Shown in pieces: positions 13,529 through 64,000 of a stretch of DNA of 64,000 nucleotides. Made by a program: the position numbers and the translations under genes. Position 1 is the stretch's first letter. Every line of letters begins with the position of its first letter. The stretch is taken from UHGV virus genome UHGV-0084588; one strand, 5' to 3'. Below the pieces are notes generated by a model. The model was not told the origin of the DNA. It saw nothing but the letters and a program-made list of their open reading frames with translations, and made no database searches. Source of the DNA: a virus.

Positions 13529-15376
13529 ATGGCTAAAGAGTTTATTGACAATCAAAACGACGTTGTGACTGGTGCTGCTGGTTCTGCTGCAGATCCAATT
13601 CCGTCTTTCGGTGGCGCGGGAGCTGCTACTGTGGATAATACCAATGCGGCCAACGCTTTTGGTGGGATGTCTAAAAACATCTCCACTTTCGATAAAGCTT
13701 TCGGATACATGTCTTTCGTGTCCACTGCTTCTCAGTTCACTAGCCTGATTGAGAAGATGGCGGAGAAGAACACATACCTGCGTAACTTCCGTTGGGGTGT
13801 CATTGACGGCATCAACTCTGAAATGGGTTCTGCTGCATACGTGGCTGGTCCGTCCGGCGATAACCATAACGAATGGCTCTACGGCATCCTGTTCTTTGAA
13901 CATGGCCAGTCCATCCGTTTCTACGAAATCAACGGTAAAGAAAACTACTACACCCTGGCGCAGCTGTTCAGTCAAGAAGGTGTGATGAACAACATCACTA
14001 ACCAGATTGCAACTCAACACAATCTGCCGAGCGTACAGTTCATGGTAATGAACTGCGTACCGGAACTGGGTAAAACCATGAACGAAGAATGGGCTAACCA
14101 GCTCATGGGCCAGATTGCACTGGGTATCTTCGGTCGTCATTCTGGCTACCTGGGCTACCTGAAAATGACCCGTTCTGATCGCTTCACCGCGCAAGTTAGC
14201 GTAGTTGAAGAAGGTTCTGTAACTGACGTTAACGGTTCCGCACAGCGTGCTGACCTGATGGTTGTGGTTGACCATACTCGTACCGGCAACAACGATAATA
14301 ACCCGACGCTGTTCTCTTCTGAACGCCTCCAGAATTATCCGAGCGTTGCAGGTGTTGGTTACATCAACCTCCGCCATAAAGGTAAACCTCAGACTCTGAC
14401 CAACGGTACTCAGGACCTGCGTCAGCTGGAAGCCGAAGTGGTTGTTTCCCTGATGGATTCTCAGTCCTCTGGGGCAATGGCACCTATCGAGCGTCAGCTG
14501 ATTGAACTGGCCGCGTTCGCACAAATCGCCACTATCGGTGGCTGGCGTGAACGTTTCATGCAGTCGCTGAACAAAACCGATCGCCGCTTCTCCCGCGTTC
14601 TGGAGTATGTAGAATGGGGCAGCGAAAAACCTGACCTGAGCAAAATCGACGGTAACCGTGAAGTTATCGAGAAATGCCTGGACACCTTCGCTAACCCGAC
14701 TGCAGCTCTGGTGGTGAACCATCGTGCAGGTAACGGTATCGGTGGTCTGTCTACTCTCCTGAGCGAAATCGGGATGGGTAACACCAACGCACTGTACACC
14801 CTGTTCAACATCCTGGATAACATGGCCAGCAACGGTGCGACTAAGTTCAGCACTCGCTTCAAAGCACTGCTGGGCAATGTCACCAACTTCGAGTGCAAAC
14901 ACGTTGTTATTGCCGGTTGCCCGACCATCTCTGGCCAGTATTTCAGCAACAGCCAGAAACGTAGCTTCCAGGATATGGACTTGGTTTCCGCTCTGACTAA
15001 AGTGGGTGACAACCAACGCGATGCGATCGACTACATCAGTGCACAGTCCTACTCTCACCGCTATCTGAATGCGCGTGACCAGCGTCTGTACCTGCTGAAA
15101 ATGGCTGCGTCCATGTTCGGTAGCAAACAGCCGCAGGTAACGGGTGAAGCGTCTGACCTGGCGATCAATCCGTTGTTTGGTAAGGCACTGGTGGAATACA
15201 TCACCGAAAACTGCAACTTCCAGGTGAACGGTGTTACCGCAGCGAACAGCCTCACTCACTCTGTGTTTGTTAACACGGGTAATGAGAACTTCGCTCTGTC
15301 TGGTAGCGGTCCTAACGCATTTGGTAGCGATTTCGGTATGTCCTTCGCTGCAACTGACTGGCGTCCGACTTTCTAA
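13529..15376 (+). CDS. abundant 615-aa protein; candidate phage nuclear-shell (chimallin-like) protein, alternatively a major capsid protein
   Basis: Strong bias to E. coli-type optimal codons; tandem promoter repeats upstream; strong terminator downstream; lies directly upstream of the RNAP beta-prime N-terminal gene, which from memory matches the phiKZ gp54-gp55 arrangement. Confidence 0.45.
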   Translation: MAKEFIDNQNDVVTGAAGSAADPIPSFGGAGAATVDNTNAANAFGGMSKNISTFDKAFGYMSFVSTASQFTSLIEKMAEKNTYLRNFRWGVIDGINSEMGSAAYVAGPSGDNHNEWLYGILFFEHGQSIRFYEINGKENYYTLAQLFSQEGVMNNITNQIATQHNLPSVQFMVMNCVPELGKTMNEEWANQLMGQIALGIFGRHSGYLGYLKMTRSDRFTAQVSVVEEGSVTDVNGSAQRADLMVVVDHTRTGNNDNNPTLFSSERLQNYPSVAGVGYINLRHKGKPQTLTNGTQDLRQLEAEVVVSLMDSQSSGAMAPIERQLIELAAFAQIATIGGWRERFMQSLNKTDRRFSRVLEYVEWGSEKPDLSKIDGNREVIEKCLDTFANPTAALVVNHRAGNGIGGLSTLLSEIGMGNTNALYTLFNILDNMASNGATKFSTRFKALLGNVTNFECKHVVIAGCPTISGQYFSNSQKRSFQDMDLVSALTKVGDNQRDAIDYISAQSYSHRYLNARDQRLYLLKMAASMFGSKQPQVTGEASDLAINPLFGKALVEYITENCNFQVNGVTAANSLTHSVFVNTGNENFALSGSGPNAFGSDFGMSFAATDWRPTF

Positions 15377-39261: not shown

Positions 39262-39309
39262 GTATTACCCTACTCCCATCGGGAGTAGGGTAACGTTTAT
39301 TTTTTTTTA
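39262..39309. terminator. bidirectional terminator; hairpin nearly identical to 44622-44669
   Basis: ttaccctactccc-atc-gggagtagggtaa flanked by A/T runs, between convergent genes. Confidence 0.7.
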
Positions 39310-41088
39310 CTTTGCGGCTTTGATGTATTCAAAAGGATCGGTAATTGCTTCTCCTTGTCGACGTAGAAAGGCTTCTAAGACGTCGTTTTTATCGGGTAAT
39401 AGGAAGAAATCTGTCGCGATCTCCATTGCGTTAACGCGACCTGCAGTAAGGTTAATACCGACGCGACGCCGTACTTCTTCAGGAACACCGTGAATGCTTA
39501 ATAACTCGATTAACGTCGTCTCACGAGACTGGTTCATCATGTTTGTTGCGGATGGGTATGCCTGGGTTAAGTCAGCATCTGCGGTTTGACCACGGAAAGC
39601 CGTGTAGAAATCATCAACCTCCTTGATGATGTTTCGTAGGCCATTCTCTGCGTTCATACACGCGGTCAATGTAACAATCCAACCGTCTGTCCCAATGACT
39701 TCATTGTCAAAATCGTTACGCATCGCGCTACCCACACAGCCGATAACCAGACCTTGTTCGTAGAGGTAGTACGTGTACGCAATACAGATTCGCTTCGGCA
39801 GTGAAGGGAAGATATCGTACATCGAATAACCTGCCAACACTGAAATAGCAGAAGACAGATCGTTCGTCTTTTTATCAAGCAGAACAATCATCAGGTTATC
39901 GAAGATGTTATAAACGCAGTATTCTAACGGGAAATCTTTCTGTGCCTTTAAGTGCCATTCCAATTTTTCCTCGTAGGGTAAATCCGGTAAGTCTAACTTG
40001 TTTAAACCCAACTCGGTTTCCAGTATCGCGTTAAGTTTGTAAGAAGGACGTTGCCCTTCGTGTACACGCAATGAACGGAATAGACACATCGCATCTACAC
40101 AGTAGAATGACGCCGTACAATAAAGAATGTGCCACTGCTGTGAAGGTGCTTTTGTTAGTGACTTTGATTCCGTTTTCTTCGATGCTTCGTCTTTCTTAAA
40201 GTAGACACGACGGTACTGTTTCGGCACGTCTGGATGACAGAAGACGTCTTCCGGTGGAATGCCCGCTGCTTCTAAAGCTTCTAACATACGTGAAATATCG
40301 AACTCGTGGTTCCATGCGACAAGTAAGTCAGGGAGACGAGGGTGAATTTCCTCAAACATCCGTTGAATACAACAGCCCGAATTGAGACATTCGTAAACGA
40401 AGATTTTGTAACCGTCGATAACGTTTTTGTATTTAACGATAGGATTGTCGTTCTCGTCTTTTCCACGAAAAGCGATTTTAGAAAGCAATTCCTGAGCACG
40501 ATTGACGAGTCGCGCTTCAAAGTTTTCGCGTCCGCAGCGTGTGACGTAGTCTTTCGTAGCAAAGAAATGAATCTCGTCGTCTAAAACAAAACTCATAATC
40601 CAGGGGTCTCGAGATTTGTCTTCTTCTCGAGTTTCCACGTCGTATACACAGATGCGGTTGGGTGAAACAGCATTAGGCCATTTACGCATGTACTTTTCTT
40701 TAATCCAGCTCGTAATGGGCAAATCGGCCCAGTAAACAAACGGTGAAGTACAAACTTGGCGGAGTGGTTTCTTTTTGTCGGGAAAACGAATCCCCAAACC
40801 CATCTGTATGGTTGAGGACATCATTACATCCGTTGTTAAATATTCCTGACACTTACTACGTTCCTCGTATTCCTTCTTTTCCTTGTGGTTACGATGTTGT
40901 GGTAAAGTAATGTAGATGGGACGTTTCAGATTTTCACGCATGACAATTCGTGGGATATATCTGCCATCTTTAGTATGGACGACCTCCTTTATGAGCACGA
41001 AGTCGTTTTCTTTCTGCTGATCGGTTGCGTAAGAAACAAACTTGCACTCCTTGGCAATAACGTCTTCCGGTGCGTAATAGTTATTCAT
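39307..41088 (-). CDS. putative family-B DNA polymerase, N-terminal fragment (3'-5' exonuclease domain plus motif A)
   Basis: Exo I YDVETRE, Exo II AWNHEFD, Exo III-like FYCVDA, motif A-like DLTQAYPSA in canonical order; start at internal ATG 41088 with RBS. Confidence 0.45.
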   Translation of the reverse strand: MNNYYAPEDVIAKECKFVSYATDQQKENDFVLIKEVVHTKDGRYIPRIVMRENLKRPIYITLPQHRNHKEKKEYEERSKCQEYLTTDVMMSSTIQMGLGIRFPDKKKPLRQVCTSPFVYWADLPITSWIKEKYMRKWPNAVSPNRICVYDVETREEDKSRDPWIMSFVLDDEIHFFATKDYVTRCGRENFEARLVNRAQELLSKIAFRGKDENDNPIVKYKNVIDGYKIFVYECLNSGCCIQRMFEEIHPRLPDLLVAWNHEFDISRMLEALEAAGIPPEDVFCHPDVPKQYRRVYFKKDEASKKTESKSLTKAPSQQWHILYCTASFYCVDAMCLFRSLRVHEGQRPSYKLNAILETELGLNKLDLPDLPYEEKLEWHLKAQKDFPLEYCVYNIFDNLMIVLLDKKTNDLSSAISVLAGYSMYDIFPSLPKRICIAYTYYLYEQGLVIGCVGSAMRNDFDNEVIGTDGWIVTLTACMNAENGLRNIIKEVDDFYTAFRGQTADADLTQAYPSATNMMNQSRETTLIELLSIHGVPEEVRRRVGINLTAGRVNAMEIATDFFLLPDKNDVLEAFLRRQGEAITDPFEYIKAAK

Positions 41089-41159
41089 GATTTCACTCTC
41101 AAATCTAGCGGCTGCTATACTGATTTGTGGGTAATGTAATTTCTCAAAAGGAAACACAA

Positions 41160-42494
41160 ATGGGATATTGGCAAAATCACATTGCATCAGTTGCGGATGC
41201 AAAGGTTGTAGCCGCAGAATCGATTAAATTCCAAGACAAAAAGAAGCTGGCAGAATTGGCTGATGTTATTGCTAAGTTTCGTGGGGCAGGCGATTTCAGT
41301 CCTGCGGGCTACGAAAGTGCCGGGGTTTCGGATTGGGTATTTAAGAATATCGGCATTACGATTCACTTTAAGAACGGTGGCGAACTGGGTCTTGCTGACG
41401 TTGCTTTTGCAGGTGTAGAACCACCGAAATTGGATGCAAACAGCCCAATCATCGCATCGATGACTCGTGCACTGTACGCAGGTAACAAAGACCTGGATAT
41501 GTACAGTAAGTTCATCAAAGAAAACGAGTTAAACACAACAATCGATGACAGCAGTGCAAAAATCAGTGGTGACCTGAGCAAAGTGGGTTCTCCGCTTTAC
41601 CTTACCCCGGTGCTGCTGGAAAAACTAAACTTGACCGATTTGGAGATCGCTTCGGTGATTCTTCACGAGGTGGGTCACATCTACTATTATTTCCGTACGC
41701 TGATGCGCACTGTAGTGACTGATTTGCTGGCAGATGCTGCGGCTAACCGCATTATGGAAACGGAAGACCAAACTGTCCGCCTGCGTATCGTTAAAGACGT
41801 GGAAAAGATGCTGAACACGAAAGTGAATCAGCCGGAAACGATTTGTACTGAGTACAAAAAAGAAAACGTCTATATGCACTTAGTCACACAGCTGTTATTA
41901 GATCGTCCGTACATTAGCGGCAGTCAAGGTTTTGCTAACAGGACATGGGAACGTGCTGCGGATGATTTTGCTTCCCGCTTTGGCGGCGCTCCTTATCTGG
42001 CCTCGGCACTGTATAAAATGGAAACCAGCCCGTTCTATTTGCTGCGGAACTCAGCGTATATGAACATGGGTGTCCATTTGACACTAGAGCTTTTCCGCGT
42101 GACCGCACTGATAGTTTCTTCTACGATTCCAATTATTCCAGTGATCTCTGTGACATTCGGAATGATCTTAAATGACCCGGATAACACCATTTACGATCCG
42201 CCGCAGCAGCGTTTTGAGGCGATGCGTCGTACACTCGTTGAAGAACTCAATACGATTAAAGACAAGAATACGAAAGCTGCTAACGAACAACGTAAACGTA
42301 TTCTGGATGGTATTGCGGTTATCGACAAGTTGTTAGAAACGGTAAAAGACAAAGATAATCTGTATCAGTTTATCTGGAATACCTTGACGCCGAAGGGTCG
42401 TCGTTCACGTGCTGCTGTGGACTATCAGCGTGCAATCGGGAAGTACATGTCGAATGACCTTCGTATTGCTTCAGCCATGTTTAATGTCGAATAA
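41160..42494 (+). CDS. hypothetical protein with HExxH zinc-metallopeptidase-like motif
   Basis: ILHEVGHIYYY; ATG at 41160 with aaagga RBS. Confidence 0.4.
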   Translation: MGYWQNHIASVADAKVVAAESIKFQDKKKLAELADVIAKFRGAGDFSPAGYESAGVSDWVFKNIGITIHFKNGGELGLADVAFAGVEPPKLDANSPIIASMTRALYAGNKDLDMYSKFIKENELNTTIDDSSAKISGDLSKVGSPLYLTPVLLEKLNLTDLEIASVILHEVGHIYYYFRTLMRTVVTDLLADAAANRIMETEDQTVRLRIVKDVEKMLNTKVNQPETICTEYKKENVYMHLVTQLLLDRPYISGSQGFANRTWERAADDFASRFGGAPYLASALYKMETSPFYLLRNSAYMNMGVHLTLELFRVTALIVSSTIPIIPVISVTFGMILNDPDNTIYDPPQQRFEAMRRTLVEELNTIKDKNTKAANEQRKRILDGIAVIDKLLETVKDKDNLYQFIWNTLTPKGRRSRAAVDYQRAIGKYMSNDLRIASAMFNVE

Positions 42495-44621: not shown

Positions 44622-44669
44622 AAGATTACCCTACTCCTCCGGGAGTAGGGTAACTTTTATTATTTTTTC
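44622..44669. terminator. bidirectional terminator; hairpin nearly identical to 39262-39309
   Basis: ttaccctactcc-tcc-gggagtagggtaa flanked by A/T runs. Confidence 0.7.
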
Positions 44670-47624
44670 TTAATCGGCGGTAGTATCGTGGCGGTTATAA
44701 ACAATAACGATATCGTCTTTAAGCCCGATGTCGCCGCTGGCCTCAATGTCCAGCTTTTTACCTATAGTTGCTCTTGATGCTTCTGAGACAACGGTAAAGA
44801 GACGCATGTCTTTATCTGGCCCCATAGCATCGAGTTCAACACCGATAATAGACGCATCGAGGGTTTCACTCAACGCATTACCGATTTCTGTTGCAGAGAT
44901 TGTTAGATGGCTACCCAAGTAATCGTTGATAACCTGAGAAGTTTTCTTACGAATCTGCGTTAAGAGCTCGGTGTTATTGCGGTTAGCAGCTGTTAGGTAA
45001 TAGCGTACTGTGAATTGGTTTTCCGCAGGGACAGGTGTTACTACCCCGTCCTCTGTACGAGCGTCGATATACCCCATTGTTGTAATCGGCACAAAGTAAC
45101 CTTCGGTGCGTTCTAACAACATAGGCTTCAAAGTCGGGAGTATTACCGTGACGTAGTTAACGATGTTTTCGATAACTTCATTCAGATACGATTTTGCAGA
45201 AGGTGTCGTCGCGAATTTATATCGCGCATCGAACACTGCCATCTCACTCCGGAATTTGATAGAACGTGACTTCGCAATTTTCGGATTACCAAACTCGTCT
45301 TTAACTAAGTCGCCTTCACGATGTAGGACGATCTGTTCTCCAGCTTCGTCGAGTTTAGGATCGCCTTTACGATGCTCGTACGTAATCTGAAGTGGTGGAG
45401 TGCGGCCTGCATCGTAAGTATAGATTGGTACACCATTCTCATCGCGTTTAACAACATCGATCTCCCACGTTGCCATCACGTCTTGTTCGTAATACTGGTA
45501 GTTAATGCTGTCAGTAACAGCACGCGCTTTACGCCAGTAGTACGTCATTGCCTTACCCAATTCGATTTTGAAAATTTCATGGGTAATACCAATCGCGTCA
45601 CGTGATGGGGCAGTGATTAACGCATCCATTTCCGCACGTTCGTAATTGCCAGGGTAGTAACCCGTGCAGCCGTAGAACAGGTTGAAATCTGTTGTCAGTG
45701 GTACAGGCGTTTCCGTTGGCGTGCTACTACTAATACGCGTATTCGTTAGTACCAATTCGTCATTACGGTCAACGTCCAGGTTGGTTTCCAGTAGGAACTC
45801 CCATACACGTTCGCTACCCTGCTTACCGACTAACGTACCGTTGATGTACGCTAAAGTATTGTCTGCGTTACGCGGACGGAACGATAGCTGCGCAAAAACT
45901 TGGTCGTCAGTCAGTGCTTGATAAGGTGCCTCCGACTTCGTTACGGTACGCAAAACATAACCGGCTTCGGTCTTTTCGATAGTGTAGTCAGCCGTTACCA
46001 CACTGAGTTCCGTACTTACGTTAGTAGCAATAAAGCGTTTGGAGTTTAACGTCGGTTTATCTAATTGATAAATACGAACGTCGATGGCTTTATTGTTGAT
46101 ATCCACAACGTAATGGAATGGCGTAAAGAGATAACGATTAGCGTTGGCCGCGTTAATCAAATCTTCTTTACGCATGGTTTTTGCTAAGACCGTCATTTCA
46201 GCATCAACCGTCAGGCTGGTGTCGGTGAATCGATAAAGCGTATCAGGAAGAATCGTCAAGCGATTACCGTTAACCTTTACCGTCGGCAGATTAACCAATT
46301 CATTCCAGGAGAAATAGAACGGTGCCGTGATTGTCCCGATGGGAGAACTGACATTGGGAATTGTCGAATCGAGCATCGGTGCCGTTAAGAAGTATGTACG
46401 GCTAGTAACATAGTCGTTTGGTTTCGACAACGTTAGGCCGTAATCGGAAACCGTTGCTTCTAATTGCTTCTCCGTAACAGGGAGTTTTCGTGCACCTACA
46501 GCGTTATTGACCACACGTGTACGCAAGTCTTCGAACGTGAGCTGGCTACGACCACCTGATAACATTTTACCCGCTTTTGCAGCCATCTGTTTGATGGAAA
46601 AACTCTTAATCGGGTTAACGTAGTTTTCGTCGTACTCACCGTTTAAATCACGCAATGTGAACGTGTACTCATCAGACGGATAAGCCGAGATATCGACACT
46701 CAAAGGCCCTAAGGTCGTGTAGATATCCATACGAATTTCGCCACTTACCAAATTCTTCGCCATGTAGATCGAAGGGATGGTACACCGTATAACACCGTCA
46801 CCGACCTGAATCAACGCCGTTGGGGTGTTGGGGTCGTAAACGTCACGACTGTGCGTATGTTGAATTTCAACCCACTTGTTATCGTTGGTTGATTTCATCC
46901 ACACCCTTACGTAGAAAAATTTGTTAGTGTAGTGGCGGGTCATGACAAAGGTATTTTTCCCCGCAACGGTGTCACTTTCGTTCTTCACCGCATACTGCAT
47001 GACGGGGATATGGATTGCCAGCAGTTGTGAAGCCGTGGTGTTAGACGATGTCAATTCCCAGTCCAGTGCATTCGTCGAGACAGGAGAAATAGGTGACTGT
47101 GTTTCGGTAATCCATAGAACCTGAAAAGCTGGGTTTTCATTGGTGCCGTAAGGAAGTACCCTGATTTCAATCGGGTATTGGATGGCGAAGGTGTAACCTG
47201 AAACCGTGAAAATTGTGTCTCGTGGGATAACAACCTTACGCACACCCGCTATTTGCAAAGGGTACGCCTTGGAGATTAAACTGTCAACATCGATTAATAA
47301 CAACAACTCGGTGGTCGAAGGTTGGGCGAACACATCAACATAGTCTACATCGGACATATGTCGGAACAGGTCATCGTACGTTTGCGCCATCGATGGAAAA
47401 GTCTTTGGTACCGATTCTTGCAAACCCATGAGCGTCGCATGACCTAACATTGTCCCCATTTCCGCCAAGTAAACAACAGGGTCTGTTGGGTCACGTAACA
47501 GTATTTGGCCTTCGGCGTCTTCTACATCCAGAAGCTGATTCAAGAGCAGTGTTTGCATCGCTGCCGGATGGTGGGCAAACAACAGTATGTTCTTTGCCAA
47601 AGTATCGTAAGTCGTAGAACTCAT
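44670..47624 (-). CDS. large hypothetical protein (984 aa); possibly a virion structural protein
   Basis: Long minus-strand ORF, ATGA-coupled to the upstream minus gene; no recognisable enzymatic motifs. Confidence 0.55.
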   Translation of the reverse strand: MSSTTYDTLAKNILLFAHHPAAMQTLLLNQLLDVEDAEGQILLRDPTDPVVYLAEMGTMLGHATLMGLQESVPKTFPSMAQTYDDLFRHMSDVDYVDVFAQPSTTELLLLIDVDSLISKAYPLQIAGVRKVVIPRDTIFTVSGYTFAIQYPIEIRVLPYGTNENPAFQVLWITETQSPISPVSTNALDWELTSSNTTASQLLAIHIPVMQYAVKNESDTVAGKNTFVMTRHYTNKFFYVRVWMKSTNDNKWVEIQHTHSRDVYDPNTPTALIQVGDGVIRCTIPSIYMAKNLVSGEIRMDIYTTLGPLSVDISAYPSDEYTFTLRDLNGEYDENYVNPIKSFSIKQMAAKAGKMLSGGRSQLTFEDLRTRVVNNAVGARKLPVTEKQLEATVSDYGLTLSKPNDYVTSRTYFLTAPMLDSTIPNVSSPIGTITAPFYFSWNELVNLPTVKVNGNRLTILPDTLYRFTDTSLTVDAEMTVLAKTMRKEDLINAANANRYLFTPFHYVVDINNKAIDVRIYQLDKPTLNSKRFIATNVSTELSVVTADYTIEKTEAGYVLRTVTKSEAPYQALTDDQVFAQLSFRPRNADNTLAYINGTLVGKQGSERVWEFLLETNLDVDRNDELVLTNTRISSSTPTETPVPLTTDFNLFYGCTGYYPGNYERAEMDALITAPSRDAIGITHEIFKIELGKAMTYYWRKARAVTDSINYQYYEQDVMATWEIDVVKRDENGVPIYTYDAGRTPPLQITYEHRKGDPKLDEAGEQIVLHREGDLVKDEFGNPKIAKSRSIKFRSEMAVFDARYKFATTPSAKSYLNEVIENIVNYVTVILPTLKPMLLERTEGYFVPITTMGYIDARTEDGVVTPVPAENQFTVRYYLTAANRNNTELLTQIRKKTSQVINDYLGSHLTISATEIGNALSETLDASIIGVELDAMGPDKDMRLFTVVSEASRATIGKKLDIEASGDIGLKDDIVIVYNRHDTTAD

Positions 47625-51638: not shown

Positions 51639-52910
51639 ATGGCAAATTTCGCAAAAACTCGCGCCGCTCGTGAATCGATGGAAGCGGCCGATGAAGTAAT
51701 CGACGGTATCAGCAACGTTGAACCGGCAGAAGAGAACCTGGACGTCCAACTTGCGGACGTTGCATCTATCGACGGTCAGCTCGATCAGCTGGAAACCGAC
51801 GGTGAAACCCTGGCTGCCGATACCGAGCGTACTGAAGACGCTATCGAACAGGCGGAAGAAGCCGTTGCTAACGGTGAAGAAATGCCGGAAGAAGCGGTTG
51901 CCCTGCACGAAGTGGCACAGGAATCCATCGCACGTCGTTGGTGCCTGGAACGTACTAAACTGGCTCGCGAATCCTATCGTCGTGGTCGTGGTATGACTGC
52001 TGCTGCCCAGGAAGGTTGGAAAGAAACCCTGAAAGATCTTTACGATCGTTTCATTCAGTTCTGTAAAGAAGTGATTGCGAAGATCAAAGACCTGAAACTG
52101 AAATATTTCAACGTCGGTAAGACTGCACAGAAACGTGCGAAGAAATATCAGGAAATGCTGCGTAAGCTGGGCAAACAGAAGAAAGATGAGATCTCCGGTG
52201 GCTTTATCACCAAGCTGTCCATCGAAGGTAAATTCGATGCTGCTGGCTCCATCGCTATTGCGAAAGAAGTTACCGCTGGTAAAGCTAAAGGTTCCATCAG
52301 TGTTCTGGAAAAACAAGCTGGCGAAGCTGTAACTGCTGTTGCCAAAGGTGACGATGACGCATTCAAAGCGATGCGTGGCGATCAGCCGGTAGAACTGTTT
52401 GGTAAAGCTGCGTCTAAACTGCGCTCTCTGCCGAACTTTGAAAAAGGTGATGCGTCTAAACTGCTGGCTCTGCCGGGTAACGCATACGTCCAGGCTGGTA
52501 CTAAAGAACTGGCTGGCGGCCACAAGTTCACCGCAATTGCATTCATGAGCACTGGCGACGCTTCTGACGATAAAGACGTGAAAACTCCGTCTGTTTCTGA
52601 AATGGCTGGTGCTGCTTCTGCTCTGGAAGCGATCGGTAAAGGCTTCGAAGCTGTACTGAAAGATTTCCGTGCTTATGACGCCGAAATCGTGAAGCTGCAA
52701 CAGGCTGCTGAGAAAGCTGCTAACGCGCTGAACAACGAAAAAGACGAAAGCAAATGGGATGGCCTGCGTAACGCACGTCAAGCTGCTGATTGGTCTGTTA
52801 AGAACTACCAGACCCTGAACCGCGCCGTTAGCTATGTTGCTAACACCGTTATTAGCGGTCTGAACGGCTACCTGGGTGCTGGTATCGGTGCTTACGAAAA
52901 GTCTAAATAA
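51639..52910 (+). CDS. abundant acidic protein, paralog A (423 aa); function unknown
   Basis: Strongly optimised codons; shares N-terminus MANF..ARESME, internal RKLGKQKKDEISGGFI and C-terminus GLNGYLGAGIGAYEKSK with 52993. Confidence 0.65.
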   Translation: MANFAKTRAARESMEAADEVIDGISNVEPAEENLDVQLADVASIDGQLDQLETDGETLAADTERTEDAIEQAEEAVANGEEMPEEAVALHEVAQESIARRWCLERTKLARESYRRGRGMTAAAQEGWKETLKDLYDRFIQFCKEVIAKIKDLKLKYFNVGKTAQKRAKKYQEMLRKLGKQKKDEISGGFITKLSIEGKFDAAGSIAIAKEVTAGKAKGSISVLEKQAGEAVTAVAKGDDDAFKAMRGDQPVELFGKAASKLRSLPNFEKGDASKLLALPGNAYVQAGTKELAGGHKFTAIAFMSTGDASDDKDVKTPSVSEMAGAASALEAIGKGFEAVLKDFRAYDAEIVKLQQAAEKAANALNNEKDESKWDGLRNARQAADWSVKNYQTLNRAVSYVANTVISGLNGYLGAGIGAYEKSK

Positions 52911-52992: not shown

Positions 52993-54258
52993 ATGGCGAA
53001 TTTCTACAAAAACAAAATTGCTCGTGAGTCTATGGAGTCTACCGCTACTGTAGTTCCAGACGGCATCGAACTGCCAGCAGAATCCGTAGAAGGTACTCTG
53101 GCCGATATCGAGCATGACACCAAACCGATCGAAGCCCTGGACGCTGACGCTGAACTGCTGGCAGAAGACGGCGACGAAACTGACGCTCAGCTGGATGTTC
53201 TGGATGAAGCTCAGGCCGCTGCTGACGGTGAAGGTGCTGGCGAAGACGGCGAAGACCCGATGGACGCCGAAGAAGATATGCCGGACGACGCTGCGACCGC
53301 GCTGGACGTTGCTCAGGAATCTATCCGTTCTCGTTGGAACTTCGAACACCGTTCTTCTGTTGCTCACGAATCTTACGGTTCTCGTAACCGTCGCCAGGTG
53401 GCTCGTGAATCCCTGTGGGAAGACATTAAAGCCTTCCTGGGCCGTATTCTCGATTGGCTGAAAGAACAAGGCCGTAAACTGAAAGATCGCTGGCTGAAAT
53501 TCCACAACCAGGGTAAATCTATCCAGGCGCGTGCTAAGAAATACGATGAAGTTATTCGTAAGCTGGGCAAACAGAAGAAAGATGAGATCTCTGGTGGCTT
53601 CATCAAGTCTCTGTCTATCGATGGCAAGTTCGTCGGTGATAATATTCCGAAACTGAAAGGTATCCTTAACCAGGTTTCCACATTCTATAGCGCTAAGATG
53701 CCTGCCATGGCCTCTAAAGCTGCTGAAGTGGTTTCCGATGTTACCAAAGGTAACGGTGTTAAAGTTGAAAAACTGAAAGCCGACTTTACCGAACTGTCCA
53801 AACAAGACAGTCTCCAAAACTTCAAACTCGGTAACATGGCAGTGAAAACCGAGTATGACAACGAAGGCGGCTTCAGCTCCACTTTTGTTGAAGCTGAAAA
53901 TAGCGTTGAAACTAGCGTGAAAACTCCGTCTGTTGGCGAACTGGCTAAAATCAATGCTCTCTTCAACGAAGTGGGTAAACAGATCGAGAAGAACGTTCAG
54001 GATTATCGTAAAGTCGAAAGCGCGCGGAAAACTTTTGAAGATAATATCGATAAGCTCCTGAAAGAAGTCGATAAAGTTAAGATCGACGAAAAACCGGAAC
54101 TGACCGAAGGTGTACGTGCTGCCCGTCGTTTCATCACCAGCGTTAACCAGGGCCTGTCTCTGGGTGAGAAGGTTATTGCTTCTACTCAGAAACACCTGGC
54201 CGGTGGTCTGAACGGCTACCTGAGTGCTGGTATCGGCGCTTACGAAAAATCTAAATAA
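52993..54258 (+). CDS. abundant acidic protein, paralog B (421 aa); function unknown
   Basis: Same conserved blocks as paralog A; acidic D/E-rich N-terminal region. Confidence 0.65.
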   Translation: MANFYKNKIARESMESTATVVPDGIELPAESVEGTLADIEHDTKPIEALDADAELLAEDGDETDAQLDVLDEAQAAADGEGAGEDGEDPMDAEEDMPDDAATALDVAQESIRSRWNFEHRSSVAHESYGSRNRRQVARESLWEDIKAFLGRILDWLKEQGRKLKDRWLKFHNQGKSIQARAKKYDEVIRKLGKQKKDEISGGFIKSLSIDGKFVGDNIPKLKGILNQVSTFYSAKMPAMASKAAEVVSDVTKGNGVKVEKLKADFTELSKQDSLQNFKLGNMAVKTEYDNEGGFSSTFVEAENSVETSVKTPSVGELAKINALFNEVGKQIEKNVQDYRKVESARKTFEDNIDKLLKEVDKVKIDEKPELTEGVRAARRFITSVNQGLSLGEKVIASTQKHLAGGLNGYLSAGIGAYEKSK

Positions 54259-54323: not shown

Positions 54324-54335
54324 GATTAAAAACAA

Positions 54336-54362
54336 TTTCAGATATATATTACCTAGGTGAGA
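54336..54362 (+). promoter_or_regulatory. candidate strong phage promoter, 27-mer TTTCAGATATATATTACCTAGGTGAGA
   Basis: Identical 27-mer at 62590-62616; contains TATATTAC; about 50 bp upstream of ATG 54413. Confidence 0.55.
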
Positions 54363-54412
54363 TTACACAGTAATCTCTTTACGACTTGTTTATTACGTTT
54401 AGGAGAAATATC

Positions 54413-59735: not shown

Positions 59736-60275
59736 GTGGCTGAAAAACGTAGCGCAGCATTTATGCTGTTTCACAAGTGGGTAGGATGGCGTGTTCCTGA
59801 ATGGACGACGATTTCAACGTATATGTCTCAGGAACATGGGTTGTTCTTACCGGAAGACGAGAAAAAAGCACGCGCGATACTGCTAAATAAAAAGACCGTA
59901 TACATGCGACCTTTCGAAGTTGCGGTTTATGCAGAAACGGGTGCGGCATTAGACGTCCACGACCCACATGACGGGATTATCGTGTACGGGTATATCATGG
60001 AGCACTTAGCCGATTGGCTAAACTACATGCAGACCCCACACTTAACAACACGTAAAGTCCCTATGGAGGGCTTACGTCAGTTTAATGCGTTAGCGCGTAA
60101 ACTGTTCCCGGTAGCGAACCGTTACGGTTACTTTAAGAAACCTGAAGTAACCATGGTGGTTTCCGTACAAGCGTTATTTGGCGAAGTCCGATTGGAAACA
60201 GAACGGCATCAGTTCAACGATACGATTATGCACCGTATTGAACAGATATACCGTAGACGTGGAGGAATTCTGTAA
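59736..60275 (+). CDS. hypothetical protein (about 180 aa), GTG start
   Basis: In-frame GTG directly after upstream stop with gagg RBS; ORF-track start 59634 would overlap by 100 nt. Confidence 0.45.
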   Translation: MAEKRSAAFMLFHKWVGWRVPEWTTISTYMSQEHGLFLPEDEKKARAILLNKKTVYMRPFEVAVYAETGAALDVHDPHDGIIVYGYIMEHLADWLNYMQTPHLTTRKVPMEGLRQFNALARKLFPVANRYGYFKKPEVTMVVSVQALFGEVRLETERHQFNDTIMHRIEQIYRRRGGIL

Positions 60276-61594
60276 TGTCGTTTGGTCGGTTACAGAACAT
60301 AGCAAACGTGCACATTGCACAAGCGGCGGGATTACCGGCCATCGACTACGTACCCCTTATTACAGTTCGTGGGGTGACGATCGACGTTTACAAAACCATG
60401 TCGATAATCCATGCCAGTAATTTCGCTCAGGATTTAACGACTATCACACATCTCAGTGTGGTAATTCCACTGAGCCAGCAACGTATTCTTACGTCGTCGG
60501 CAGAAGGGGATTTATCAGTTAAAATCCTGATGCGGACAATGAACAAGAAAACCATTGCTCAACTGAACTACCGAGGAATCGTGGTTAACAATCACGATCC
60601 CGATATGGAATCGCCCACGATGTTCTTGGGTGAGTCTGACCAAAAAGGGTTGGGCGTGGTGACGTTGGAACTGATGGACGAATCGATGTGGTTCCTTCGC
60701 TGTCGGCAGGTAGGAGGGATTTACCACGAAACAGACGGATTAAGTGTCGTTCGTGCATTGCTTGCTGATACGTTACCTACTGGGGATGCACCAGAAGGTC
60801 AGTTGGTTGGTGTGGAATACGAGGAAGAAGAACAACAGCCTTATCGTGACATTTTGATTCCCGATTCGCAAAGTTTTCTTTCGGTTTTCGATTTCATTCA
60901 GAACCGTTACGGTGTGTATAGCCAAGGATTAGGTGTCTTCTTGTATAAACACCGTTGGCATATCTTTCAACCGTGGGATTCTAAGAAATTCTCTACGGCG
61001 AAAAAGAAACTGGTGGTAATTAACCTTCCAAGAGAGAAAGTTGCCTATTTAGATAAAACGTGCCACATTGCAGGTGACGTCATTTATCTGATTTGTGGTG
61101 GCGATGTTCACACCTTCGAAGACAAAGACGCCCTTGCGCTAAATCAGGGAACGGGTTACCGCGTGGGTTCAATCCGTGCCTTAGATGGACGTGCAAGTTC
61201 TTTCTCTCCAGGCGATGTTTCGGCAACGACGTCAGATTCGTTTGTTTCAGCAGCAGACCCTACACAGTACCCTGGTGGTGTTGTTAATGCGCCTATTGAT
61301 CCAAACGAGCACTTCAGCGACACGGATAAGCCCCGTCGTTCTAAGTTGGCTGCCGCCAGAGGGACACTGACCGCAACGACCTGGAACCGTTCAGCGTATG
61401 GCTTATTGCAGCCGGGTATGGCAGTAAAATATCTGTATGCGAATAATTACGGTGTATACACTCGTTATGGGACGTTGGTTGGTGAAGTTTTCCAAGCTGC
61501 TGTTGATGGCGGTTCGATGGCGTCCCCACAATTCAATACCATTAGTCAATTGACGTTGTGGTTGACTAATGAAAAATTTACAACCGCTACGTAA
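60275..61594 (+). CDS. hypothetical protein (439 aa)
   Basis: TAATG junction; ggagg RBS. Confidence 0.6.
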   Translation: MSFGRLQNIANVHIAQAAGLPAIDYVPLITVRGVTIDVYKTMSIIHASNFAQDLTTITHLSVVIPLSQQRILTSSAEGDLSVKILMRTMNKKTIAQLNYRGIVVNNHDPDMESPTMFLGESDQKGLGVVTLELMDESMWFLRCRQVGGIYHETDGLSVVRALLADTLPTGDAPEGQLVGVEYEEEEQQPYRDILIPDSQSFLSVFDFIQNRYGVYSQGLGVFLYKHRWHIFQPWDSKKFSTAKKKLVVINLPREKVAYLDKTCHIAGDVIYLICGGDVHTFEDKDALALNQGTGYRVGSIRALDGRASSFSPGDVSATTSDSFVSAADPTQYPGGVVNAPIDPNEHFSDTDKPRRSKLAAARGTLTATTWNRSAYGLLQPGMAVKYLYANNYGVYTRYGTLVGEVFQAAVDGGSMASPQFNTISQLTLWLTNEKFTTAT

Positions 61595-61626
61595 ATTATG
61601 TTGTCCGTAACCTAAAGGATTTGTTA

Positions 61627-62427
61627 ATGAGTAATCTACTTACTTTCAGAATGTCTGGCCAAACGTTAATCCAAATCGACAAGTTCGAAGAAGAGAATTT
61701 TTCGAAACCGTCGAAGTTGTTAGAACGTTGCCTTAATGTTATTCCTGGTGGCGAACAACGCCAGTTGGATTACATCATGGCGTCCAGTGCTGACAAAACG
61801 ATTTCTGTTATTTATACCGTAGACGGTGTACAGAATTGTCGCTTATTACCAATCGAAGAAAAAGGGACGTTAGGTCACTTGTTGTTCCTGCACGCGATCA
61901 CAACTGCTGTGGTGTCTGGTGCTTTAGAAGCGCAATACGGCTTTGCTTATTGTTACTTCTATGCTCAGAAATTGGCTGCAGCGGTTACCCCAGGGCAACA
62001 GGAAACCTATCCTCAGTATATTGAACGTATTCTCCCTTCACACTTTAGTGAGTCGGAAGACTATGACTTCAATGCGTTTCGTTTTACCGTAGTGGGTGAA
62101 GCCCGCGATCCTGAATACACAACAGCGGTTCGTGCGGTGGTGCGCTATTCTGTGATTTCTACAGACAGCGGTACATCAAATAACTTTAATGAAGTGTACC
62201 CGGTCTTGCAGTTAGGTCCTTATGTGACTTTCAACAGCTACGTACCATTCAGTTGCCAGCTTGTGGGTCCGCAGGATAACGATTCTATTCTCCCTGTTGC
62301 GGAAGAAAAGTCATTGTTTATTCGCGAATCTGTAGAAGCTATTAGCGATAAGCGCTTTATGATTTCTTCGAAGACGGGCATTAGCGATCCTGAAATCGCT
62401 GTAATGGATAAGATGCAAGGTCTGTAA
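61627..62427 (+). CDS. hypothetical protein (about 267 aa)
   Basis: ATG at 61627 with aaagga RBS. Confidence 0.55.
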   Translation: MSNLLTFRMSGQTLIQIDKFEEENFSKPSKLLERCLNVIPGGEQRQLDYIMASSADKTISVIYTVDGVQNCRLLPIEEKGTLGHLLFLHAITTAVVSGALEAQYGFAYCYFYAQKLAAAVTPGQQETYPQYIERILPSHFSESEDYDFNAFRFTVVGEARDPEYTTAVRAVVRYSVISTDSGTSNNFNEVYPVLQLGPYVTFNSYVPFSCQLVGPQDNDSILPVAEEKSLFIRESVEAISDKRFMISSKTGISDPEIAVMDKMQGL

Positions 62428-62429
62428 AA

Positions 62430-62472
62430 ACTTCCCGTTACCTCTGTGGGTAACGGGAATACCTTTTATTTA
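62430..62472 (+). terminator. terminator-like hairpin
   Basis: cttcccgttacc-tctgtg-ggtaacgggaa followed by a T-rich stretch. Confidence 0.55.
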
Positions 62473-62589
62473 TCGCTAAACGCCACGCAGAAGTCATTTC
62501 ACCATTAAGGCGACTAATTACCCTTTAAAAAGAAAATCGCGTTAGAATGCGTTTTAGAGCGTTCTAGAGGGTATATGGATTCAAAAAGA

Positions 62590-62616
62590 TTTCAGATATA
62601 TATTACCTAGGTGAGA
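62590..62616 (+). promoter_or_regulatory. candidate strong phage promoter, 27-mer TTTCAGATATATATTACCTAGGTGAGA (second copy)
   Basis: Identical to 54336-54362; about 47 bp upstream of ATG 62663. Confidence 0.55.
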
Positions 62617-62662
62617 GTTTACGTAATACTCATTTATCGAATACCTAATTAGGAGTTATATC

Positions 62663-62806
62663 ATGATTTCTGTAAAACACAAAAAAGCTATCTTCGCTGT
62701 TGTTATCGCTGTTGTTCTGGGTTGCCTGTACCTGGACATCGACAAAGGCTACGACACTTGCATCGACAACGGTAATTCCGTTGCACAGTGCACTGGTCGT
62801 GGTTAA
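62663..62806 (+). CDS. small membrane protein (47 aa), not in the ORF track
   Basis: taggag RBS 7 nt upstream of ATG; MISVKHKKAIFAVVIAVVLGCLYLDIDKGYDTCIDNGNSVAQCTGRG; optimised codons; own promoter and terminator. Confidence 0.6.
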   Translation: MISVKHKKAIFAVVIAVVLGCLYLDIDKGYDTCIDNGNSVAQCTGRG

Positions 62807-62810
62807 TGTA

Positions 62811-62843
62811 TAAGGCACCTTCGGGTGCCCTTAATTTTTTTAT
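62811..62843 (+). terminator. rho-independent terminator
   Basis: hairpin aaggcacc-ttcg-ggtgcctt followed by TTTTTTT. Confidence 0.7.
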
Positions 62844-62860
62844 TAATTGGAGCATAAAAG

Positions 62861-63676
62861 ATGATTACTATTAAAGATTATTTTCCGCGTGGGCTGAGCA
62901 ATGAAAACTTCGTTCCAACTGAAGACATTGCCATCGTTGCAGAGTCTAACGATAAGTCTTTTAAACTCTACTTGAGTACAGCAGCAGGAAAATCTACTCT
63001 TATCCTTCGTGAACCTGAAGTGATAAGCATCTGCTCGTTTGGGGGCGGTGTAGAAGGAACGATTAACTGGTTGAAATCCAGAATGCATCGTTTACTTATC
63101 GTGAATACCGATCCTACGATTCGATTACAGCAATTGAAATCGTTGAATGAAGTTATCGTCGGATTATTGGAACACGAAACGTTCGGTAGTGCTGAGATTG
63201 CGGAAGCGATTAAATCTGTAGAACTGATCGAGTGGAGTGATATCGAATACGAACGTGCTGCGTTATTCGCAATGTACGGTGACGATAATCCCGTTGTGTT
63301 TGCACAAACGTTGGATAATGTTACCGTGACGGCGCGCGTATTGTTCGGCTTGCAACGTGTTGAGTTTGAACTGAAACACGTTTATGTAAGTAATACTCCA
63401 GAGATGGTGGAAACGTTGACTCGTGCGTTCGCTTACCCGTTAGACGGAGAATGGGAACAGCAGATTAATGAAGCGTTAGGCGCAATGCTGTTCTTAGCAG
63501 GCACACTAAGGAAAGAAGAGAAATTAGAAGGTCGTGTCTACCCAGAATACGATTTTGTTTGTGAAGAATGTGGAGCACAGTATCAAATACGTGTTCCTTT
63601 AACCGGCCTGACAATCCCGAAAGCCAACGTGGAATGTAAAGAATGTGGCCATGTTCAATACGTAGCGACTAAATAA
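62861..63676 (+). CDS. hypothetical protein (271 aa) with C-terminal zinc-ribbon
   Basis: CEECG...x17...CKECG; ATG with ggagcataaaag RBS. Confidence 0.6.
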   Translation: MITIKDYFPRGLSNENFVPTEDIAIVAESNDKSFKLYLSTAAGKSTLILREPEVISICSFGGGVEGTINWLKSRMHRLLIVNTDPTIRLQQLKSLNEVIVGLLEHETFGSAEIAEAIKSVELIEWSDIEYERAALFAMYGDDNPVVFAQTLDNVTVTARVLFGLQRVEFELKHVYVSNTPEMVETLTRAFAYPLDGEWEQQINEALGAMLFLAGTLRKEEKLEGRVYPEYDFVCEECGAQYQIRVPLTGLTIPKANVECKECGHVQYVATK

Positions 63677-63679
63677 AAG

Positions 63680-63730
63680 CAACCCCTAATCCCGAAAAGG
63701 ATTAGGGGTACACTTTATTTATTTTCGCAA
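63680..63730 (+). terminator. rho-independent terminator
   Basis: hairpin acccctaatcc-cgaaaa-ggattaggggt followed by a T-rich stretch. Confidence 0.65.
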
Positions 63731-63769
63731 ATTTCACTGAAAAGAGGAGTGAACACTACTAACTAATAA

Positions 63770-63885
63770 AGGAGGGGCTGTTCCAGCAGCCCCTCCTCCT
63801 CGCTTTAACTTTTCGAAAGAGAAGTTAAAGCAGTAGGGACTGTATAGGCAGTCCCTACTTAGGCGGCTAACGAACTGTTAGCCTA
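63770..63885 (+). other. cluster of four consecutive stable hairpins in an intergenic region
   Basis: aggaggggctg/cagcccctcct; gctttaactt/aagttaaagc (10 bp); gtagggactg/cagtccctac; ggctaac/gttagcc. Confidence 0.4.
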
Positions 63886-63913
63886 ACATTAAGACACTAA
63901 GTGAGGTATCAAA

Positions 63914-64000
63914 ATGCCTGATTTACGTAAGGAAGTTTTAAAGCAAACGAAATTATCACAGCTTAGGGAAAGTGAGTTCAAGGCACACATAAACGACTAT
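63914..64000 (+). CDS. hypothetical protein, 5' partial (continues beyond window)
   Basis: ATG with gtgagg RBS; open to window end. Confidence 0.45.
   Translation, partial: MPDLRKEVLKQTKLSQLRESEFKAHINDY

Follow-up and report, generated by a model that had tools for sequence, protein, structure and literature searches.

At the right-hand end of a 64-kb stretch of UHGV virus genome UHGV-0084588 (the window, by which we mean the whole stretch of DNA that was analyzed) lies a short plus-strand gene for a protein of 47 amino acids (aa), together with its own elements for transcription, translation and termination. In order along the plus strand, this locus comprises the following features.

62432-62459, plus strand: intrinsic terminator ending the gp65-like gene upstream, with a 12-bp stem and then a T-rich tail (terminator scan)
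62539-62571, plus strand: a 10-bp repeat in three tandem copies, GCGTTAGAAT / GCGTTTTAGA / GCGTTCTAGAggg, immediately before the promoter motif
62578-62616, plus strand: promoter motif GATTCAAAAAGATTTCAGATATATATTACCTAGGTGAGA of the phiKZ early (virion RNA polymerase) type, one of two copies in the window and a match to the consensus
62599-62606, plus strand: promoter core TATATTAC, within the 39-nt block of the preceding entry
62651-62655, plus strand: Shine-Dalgarno sequence AGGAG, separated from the ATG by 7 nt, read from the sequence
62663-62806, plus strand: coding sequence of 47 aa including the stop codon, ATG start, protein MISVKHKKAIFAVVIAVVLGCLYLDIDKGYDTCIDNGNSVAQCTGRG
62814-62843, plus strand: intrinsic terminator, GGCACC-UUCG-GGUGCC (62814-62829) and then CTTAATTTTTTTATT (terminator scan and RNA fold)

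The preliminary description of this region had put forward a 47-aa open reading frame (ORF) missed by the ORF track, with a strong ribosome-binding site (RBS), strongly optimized codons, a conserved 27-mer upstream and a terminator of its own, and on each of these points our analysis agrees with it: the ORF is present on the plus strand at 62663-62806, AGGAG is correctly placed 7 nt from the ATG, the codons are the best adapted in the window, the 27-mer belongs to a 39-nt block with a second copy, and the stem-loop (GGCACC-TTCG-GGTGCC as DNA), which begins 7 bases past the stop codon, is followed by a run of 7 T. Promoter, RBS, optimized ORF and terminator do make up a self-contained expression unit and, since the terminator at 62432-62459 insulates its 5' side, the 47-aa gene forms a monocistronic unit with a terminator on either side. 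In phages Huxley, pEa_SNUABM_43 and pEa_SNUABM_6, the homologue, too, is followed by a terminator with a similar CTTCGG loop. The gene had also been called unannotated, which is true of the first-stage ORF track but not of GenBank, where homologues are annotated as hypothetical (e.g. SPN3US_0066).

Recognizing that ORFs of this size are frequent here (the ORF listing around the 47-aa gene has 43 of at least 25 aa within 4 kb), the ORF by itself proves nothing and other evidence is needed. The case that it is beyond chance combines three lines: the PHROG profile scan matched phrog_8574 at E 3.4e-23, with all 47 residues aligned to the 47 positions of the profile, homologues are found in 63 phage records, and pairwise codon comparison of the orthologues gave proportions of synonymous and nonsynonymous differences of pS 0.5-0.75 vs. 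pN 0.14-0.42 (omega ~0.05-0.6), with synonymous sites nearly saturated. The 47-aa gene is under purifying selection, and we regard it as next to certain that 62663-62806 is a real, translated gene. The opposing view, that a chance ORF sits within a non-coding early transcript (a small RNA or a leader), could draw on the commonness of ORFs this long in the region and on a transcript that folds a little better than its shuffled controls (z = -2.05), but it is effectively refuted by amino acids that are conserved while synonymous change is near saturation, by a PHROG match spanning the full length, by the strong and correctly spaced RBS, by the lack of any Rfam match in a scan of 62300-64000 and by an extreme codon adaptation that is confined to the frame of the gene.

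This adaptation is the highest in the window, with a codon adaptation index (CAI) of 0.867 vs. a mean of 0.30 (sd 0.11, max 0.70) for 53 window genes and 0.18 and 0.12 for the other two frames of the same ORF; the weights were those of the E. coli Sharp-Li table, with the ranking being robust and the absolute values approximate. Only 0.06% of 46-codon stretches reach this value. The single preferred E. coli codon is used at 38 of the 46 positions (83%), compared with 63-68% in the genes of the internal head proteins, the two paralogues of which are next best (0.70 and 0.65). The homologues are usually the best codon-adapted gene in their neighborhood as well, but the window copy (0.87) exceeds the range of the family (0.48-0.70), as does a 98%-identical copy in a Logan assembly (0.82).

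Sequence relationships identify the 47-aa protein as the orthologue of SPN3US gp66 (SPN3US_0066, AEP83899.1; PHROG 8574), with which it shares 53% identity, and the phage as a divergent SPN3US-like, phiKZ-related jumbo phage of Enterobacterales. By tblastn, homologues were found in 61-63 GenBank phage genomes, all of them SPN3US-, Machina-, Wellington- or Erskine-like jumbo phages infecting Salmonella, Erwinia, Escherichia and Proteus, and nearly all of these homologues carry the label "hypothetical protein", including the 47-aa SPN3US_0066. The window phage is a distant relative, and its conserved 615-aa protein is only ~51% identical to the best GenBank match; set against this figure, the identity to gp66 means that the 47-aa protein has been kept about as well as a large protein. 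Recovering the family required a profile built from 14 orthologues, which retrieved 32 cluster representatives of 45-51 aa from a set of 5.8 billion proteins, while a single-sequence word-indexed protein search returned one near-identical match only; an identical protein is encoded on three IMG/VR contigs (150-225 kb). The family shares with the window protein its length (45-50 aa), its layout, a C-x9-C spacing, NG[NH]S and a CTGR[GS] end, along with the same early-promoter 25-mer upstream and a place that is always downstream of the homologues of SPN3US gp64 (a virion protein) and gp65. The members differ in operon structure, with gp66 heading a three-gene operon in SPN3US and its counterpart being the second or third gene in Erwinia phages, whereas the window copy forms a monocistronic unit that ends in a terminator of its own; in addition, the window copy has a lipobox Cys that gp66 of SPN3US lacks. 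The gene is thus a new divergent member of a catalogued, uncharacterized family.

The case for early expression comes from the 39-nt block at 62578-62616, which recurs at 54324-54362 with 92% identity. The 27-mer noted earlier matches one other site in the window, with 3 mismatches, vs. 0 expected by chance, and a 25-mer, TTTCAGATATATATTACCTAGGTGA, recurs without any change in the loci of SPN3US and ChrisDB, being identical between phages whose proteins share only ~50% identity. In nearly every relative, the same motif precedes the operon to which the homologue belongs; it is directly upstream of the homologue in SPN3US, while in Erwinia phages the distance is 277-908 nt, with 1-2 small genes between. 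The sequence TATATTAC is the early-promoter core of phiKZ, with a longer consensus given for 201phi2-1, OBP and N1M2 (PMC7058600, Table 2), and the window motif fits the published early-promoter consensus sequences of all four phages (PMC7058600; also PMC11512511); an AT-rich core centered near -10 is described as the signature of early promoters read by the virion RNA polymerase (PMC7598289). The window also encodes split RNA polymerase (RNAP) beta-like subunits and phiKZ-type internal head proteins. Because the motif is identical to published early promoters, the 47-aa gene is very probably expressed early, with transcription predicted to start near 62612-62615. The three tandem 10-bp repeats, which have an exact period, occur nowhere else in the window and are absent at the promoter copy at 54324; they are conserved at this location in SPN3US, ChrisDB, Caitlin, Huxley, Asesino and Wellington, as judged by alignment, and possibly represent a locus-specific regulator-binding or UP-like element.

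Two subclasses of the promoter motif can be told apart in the window. Class A, TTTCAGATATATATTACCTAGGTGAGA, is rare and conserved base for base, with two copies (54344 and 62598), and class B, of the AGATATTATC type, is looser, with at least five sites by regular-expression scan (5586, 13389, 13469, 21900 and 27098), among them two in tandem, 80 bp apart, that precede the 615-aa gene and another that precedes the RNAP beta-like genes. Class A transcripts usually start with a 5' stem-loop (54360-54379 in the window, ~970 in locus L010 (STsAS) and the equivalents in loci L011, L014, L012 and L001), the arms of which vary between phages and stay complementary (GAGAGTTGA..TCAACTCTC, GAGAGA..TCTCTC, GAACGA..TCGTTC and GAGATTAC..GTAATCTC; z down to -5.7). 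As a part of the 47-aa unit such a stem-loop was set aside, being weak there (-2.7 kcal/mol, z = 0).

With respect to the protein itself, the preliminary description was right about a small protein with one hydrophobic segment. The chain comprises a basic N-terminus (KHKK), a hydrophobic segment from A9 to L24 that includes VLG-C21 and a tail from D25 to G47. There are three Cys in total (C21, C33 and C43), i.e. two beyond that of the LGC triplet and not the three reported earlier. In the tail, C33 and C43 (C-x9-C) flank an NGNS turn, and the C-terminus reads CTGRG. Among the 33 aligned representatives, C33, G37, S39, C43, T44, G45 and R46 are invariant, and Y30, N36 and G47 are also invariant or nearly so in the family alignment. 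Across the family, the N-terminus has a net charge of +2 to +4, whereas the tail is either neutral or acidic; the uncharged run is 15-22 residues long, with 16 in the window copy, 18-20 in most members and 13 in one outlier (P0032). The AlphaFold2 (AF2) model, built with the 33-sequence alignment, displays one unbroken helix from residue 4 to residue 35, then a turn at NGNS and a helix over residues 40-44 (mean predicted local distance difference score, pLDDT, 85.5), an arrangement in which a disulfide between C33 and C43 could staple a hairpin of helix, NGNS turn and short helix. Based on the charge distribution and the Cys pair, we infer an N-in/C-out topology, with KHKK in the cytoplasm and the last ~20 residues in the oxidizing periplasm. 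That the protein is exported, or membrane-anchored with a periplasmic tail, is in our view highly likely.

Outside the family, exhaustive HMMER searching of 1.84 billion representatives found nothing except a weak outlier, P0033, a 381-aa metagenomic membrane protein (E 9e-4 library-wide; Logan SRR21621036 contig, L022 448-1593). It comprises four tandem repeats, A-Y-[DNS]-x-C-I-G-[NS]-G-[NA]-[ST]-x-x-Q-C, close to the Cys-loop of the family, Y-D-T-C-I-D-N-G-N-S-V-A-Q-C. These repeats hint that the Cys-loop is an older extracytoplasmic mini-module; as neither a Pfam domain nor relatives were found for P0033, which lies on a 1.9-kb contig, it is a weak lead only. A match of the ChrisDB orthologue to AimP in NCBIfam (E 0.11) was sub-threshold and covered the hydrophobic segment only, and was rejected as non-specific.

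The predicted topology can be set beside that of MgrB of E. coli and Salmonella (PF13998), which resembles the window protein in its 47 aa, basic N-terminus, single hydrophobic segment, small-residue-Cys motif (LAC vs. LGC) and short tail. Besides the lipobox-like LAC, the MgrB sequence has two periplasmic Cys about ten residues apart. MgrB looked like a type I or II signal but was found experimentally to be an uncleaved N-in/C-out inner-membrane protein (PMC2789325). In our check against MgrB, the charge distribution, the hydrophobic run and the AF2 helix of the window family would be consistent with a single-pass N-in/C-out topology and a periplasmic Cys pair, both of which are predictions for the phage protein. 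The two proteins differ in setting, MgrB being a host feedback regulator and the window gene an early phage gene, as judged by its promoter, with extreme expression signals. Homology to MgrB was not detected, with no Pfam match in the 33 members and an hhalign probability of 22.7%, over the transmembrane (TM) segment only.

The LGC triplet, previously described as lipobox-like, invites the view that the protein is a true lipoprotein that would mask a receptor or channel, in the manner of an exclusion lipoprotein of the Llp/Cor type. The first 21 residues have the classical build of a lipoprotein signal, with MISVKHKK as the basic n-region, AIFAVVIAVVLG as a 12-residue h-region (within the 7-22 residues expected) and C21 closing the lipobox, which fits a PS51257-type pattern ([LVI][ASTVI][GAS]C). 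The triplet holds for this copy of the gene but not for the family as a whole: the Cys is found in 19 of 42 distinct orthologues, almost always after A or G, and the full pattern fits 17 of them, but the other 23 have V, S, A, T, I, W or L at this site, with SPN3US reading AFA-V. Given that the Cys is absent in SPN3US and present in fewer than half of the orthologues, lipidation cannot be the conserved feature of the family. Also favoring a lipoprotein are the +2 residue, which is never Asp, the label 'Lipoprotein' carried by the Kwan orthologue in UniRef, and the example of T5 Llp, an early small outer-membrane lipoprotein; on the other hand, hydrophobic residues follow the Cys (LYL, SYITL, AIITV) and the AF2 helix passes straight through it, MgrB with its lipobox-like feature is an uncleaved membrane protein, and the PHROG and Pfam scans gave no similarity to Llp or Cor. 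Cleavage at the -1 site, by signal peptidase I or II, may occur, but the residues past the site remain hydrophobic and the AF2 helix is unbroken, both of which speak against it. We consider processing of the window orthologue to a 27-residue lipopeptide possible, at odds of roughly one to two, with the family not needing lipidation, and the masking lipoprotein itself less likely than not.

Early timing, high expression, an envelope location and a tail that is better kept than the hydrophobic segment together point to specific envelope binding. As the most likely mechanism, we surmise that the injected virion RNA polymerase would transcribe the gene within minutes of infection from its TATATTAC-type promoter, yielding an mRNA of ~230 nt, and that the product would insert N-in/C-out as an abundant, periplasm-facing peptide which would bind a host envelope component very early in infection. 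Such binding might block further phage entry, or the inactivation of progeny on debris, in the manner of superinfection exclusion by T5 Llp or T4 Imm and Sp; alternatively, a host membrane protein might be silenced or hijacked, as MgrB does to PhoQ. We assign a probability of about 0.55 to an early, exported, envelope-acting binding peptide, taken as the whole chain of steps. By analogy, superinfection exclusion or host takeover would be a plausible outcome, and superinfection exclusion specifically is a tentative proposal.

The systems invoked here are compared only for how they work, and no homology was found between Llp, Imm/Sp or MgrB and the window protein. The small lipoprotein Llp of T5, which is produced soon after infection, plugs FhuA; it has a disulfide and its mature form is ~61 aa. 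T4 Imm and Sp are further superinfection-exclusion proteins, and together with Llp/Cor they resemble the proposed role of the window protein in being small envelope proteins, made early, that block phage entry from the periplasmic side. The window protein differs from Llp in having only ~20-27 exposed residues and a lipobox that its family does not conserve, and phrog_8574 was its only match in the PHROG and Pfam scans, with nothing pointing to Llp/Cor homology. As for MgrB, it binds a larger membrane protein and inhibits the sensor kinase PhoQ (PMC2789325; bioRxiv 10.1101/438515). By analogy, the window protein, made in bulk, might act as an MgrB-type mimic, docking on a host sensor kinase or other envelope machine by way of its membrane helix and disulfide-stapled periplasmic hairpin, although we consider this improbable.

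A role in lysis, which the preliminary description had raised in the form of a spanin-like lipoprotein, would make the product part of a lysis cassette, whether as a lipoprotein resembling an o-spanin or u-spanin, as an antiholin or as a small holin. It is true that the protein shares a small size, a possible lipoprotein signal and periplasmic Cys with spanins (Rz1-type o-spanin, u-spanin), that it has one hydrophobic segment with a lipobox-like Cys, and that an antiholin can be a small signal-anchored protein, as T4 RI exemplifies. In addition, residues 4-37 gave a weak match to the Rz-like spanin phrog_4297, but this match (E 0.042) is non-significant and falls on the hydrophobic segment only. 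Spanins come with a late promoter, an i-spanin partner, and a proline-rich domain or a C-terminal TM domain, whereas the promoter motif here is of the early type, the gene is monocistronic between gp65-like and gp70-like neighbors with no adjacent or embedded i-spanin, holin or endolysin, and the tail has neither proline nor the C-terminal TM domain of a u-spanin; in relatives, moreover, the gene shares its transcript with those for small soluble proteins that have no known function. These observations argue against the lysis reading, which we deem very unlikely.

Small size, hydrophobicity and very high, early expression would also suit a membrane-active toxin of the Hok, TisB or entericidin kind, depolarizing or permeabilizing the inner membrane for host shut-off, all the more so as toxins of the Hok type likewise combine a TM segment at the N-terminus with a short Cys-containing tail in the periplasm. 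However, the best conserved part of the family is the polar Cys-loop tail and not the hydrophobic segment, which argues for specific recognition over bulk damage; we also found no sequence relationship to any toxin family, and an early collapse of the proton motive force would be expected to harm a long, energy-dependent phage cycle. These points render the toxin account quite unlikely.

Returning to the envelope-acting binding peptide, several observations weigh against it. The hydrophobic run of the window copy is only 16 residues, and the -1 residue is small in 37 of 42 orthologues, with -3 also small, as fits cleavage by signal peptidase; taken together, the short run and the small -1 and -3 residues mean that the mature protein might be a 27-mer, either free or lipidated, that does not span the membrane. 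The gene is not adjacent to that of the receptor-binding protein, which llp of T5 adjoins. Early timing rests on the motif, as a literature search for SPN3US transcriptomics yielded nothing usable, and the existence of two motif subclasses in the window makes their relative timing a caveat on the early call. The family is absent from CR5/Phobos-type relatives, though other conserved genes are common to them, which suggests that it is non-essential to the phage life style. Sequence searches of Pfam (all 33 family members), NCBIfam and the PDB found no relative, so that function is deduced from architecture and timing only, and a literature search for SPN3US gp66 found no mention of it.

Elsewhere in the window, the following genes bear on the setting of the 47-aa unit or were noted in passing.

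13529-15376: ORF of 615 aa, CAI 0.62, with two tandem class B promoters upstream; phrog_8316 (unknown function)
51639-52910 and 52993-54258: two paralogous genes in tandem for internal head proteins of the phiKZ type (PF12699, E 3e-73)
60275-61594: gp64-like ORF, preceding the gp65-like ORF and the 47-aa gene
61621-62427: gp65-like ORF (phrog_8163, E 1e-119)
62861-63676: gp70-like gene, the downstream neighbor, with a weak match to phrog_10180

The gp70-like gene begins 20 nt past the T-run of the terminator and has no early-promoter motif of its own, and the C-terminus of its product resembles a CxxC...CxxC zinc ribbon (Pfam Zn_ribbon_8, E 0.0012, below cutoff). Beyond it are three strong hairpins within 180 nt (63682-63860), at 63682-63709, at ~63770-63800 (AGGAGGGGCTG..CAGCCCCTCCTCC) and at 63832-63859, two of which score as terminators on both strands; the next small gene is at 63915. 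The head protein paralogues, both strongly codon-optimized (CAI 0.70 and 0.65), have several near-identical DNA stretches, including the last 55 nt (95%). The 615-aa protein, annotated as hypothetical in all 62 relatives, could be a candidate for the nucleus shell (chimallin) by its size, expression signals and early promoters; a relationship to the solved chimallin was looked for and the PDB and Pfam searches were negative. Finally, a 29-nt repeat, CGGGAGTAGGGTAACGTTTATTTTTTTTT, occurs at 39280-39308 and 44640-44668 with 93% identity, adjoining the minus-strand gene blocks 39307-41202 and 44670-47624, where it probably serves both as a common terminator module.

Annotation routinely misses small membrane proteins or leaves them as "hypothetical", and next to nothing is known about how nucleus-forming jumbo phages act on the cell envelope during the first minutes of an infection. 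If the peptide proves to be an ordinary exclusion protein, the result would be incremental. An MgrB-type mimic, if true, would mean that host envelope signaling is blinded or re-programmed in those first minutes; to our knowledge, control of a host membrane sensor by a small protein has not been described as a means of phage takeover. The strongest expression signals in 64 kb, a promoter identical to the base across genera, the locus-specific repeat element and the highly conserved Cys-loop, predicted to be periplasmic, together make SPN3US gp66 a well-defined early-envelope candidate and, SPN3US being a genetically tractable phage, one that may be considered for exclusion, receptor masking or the hijacking of a host sensor.

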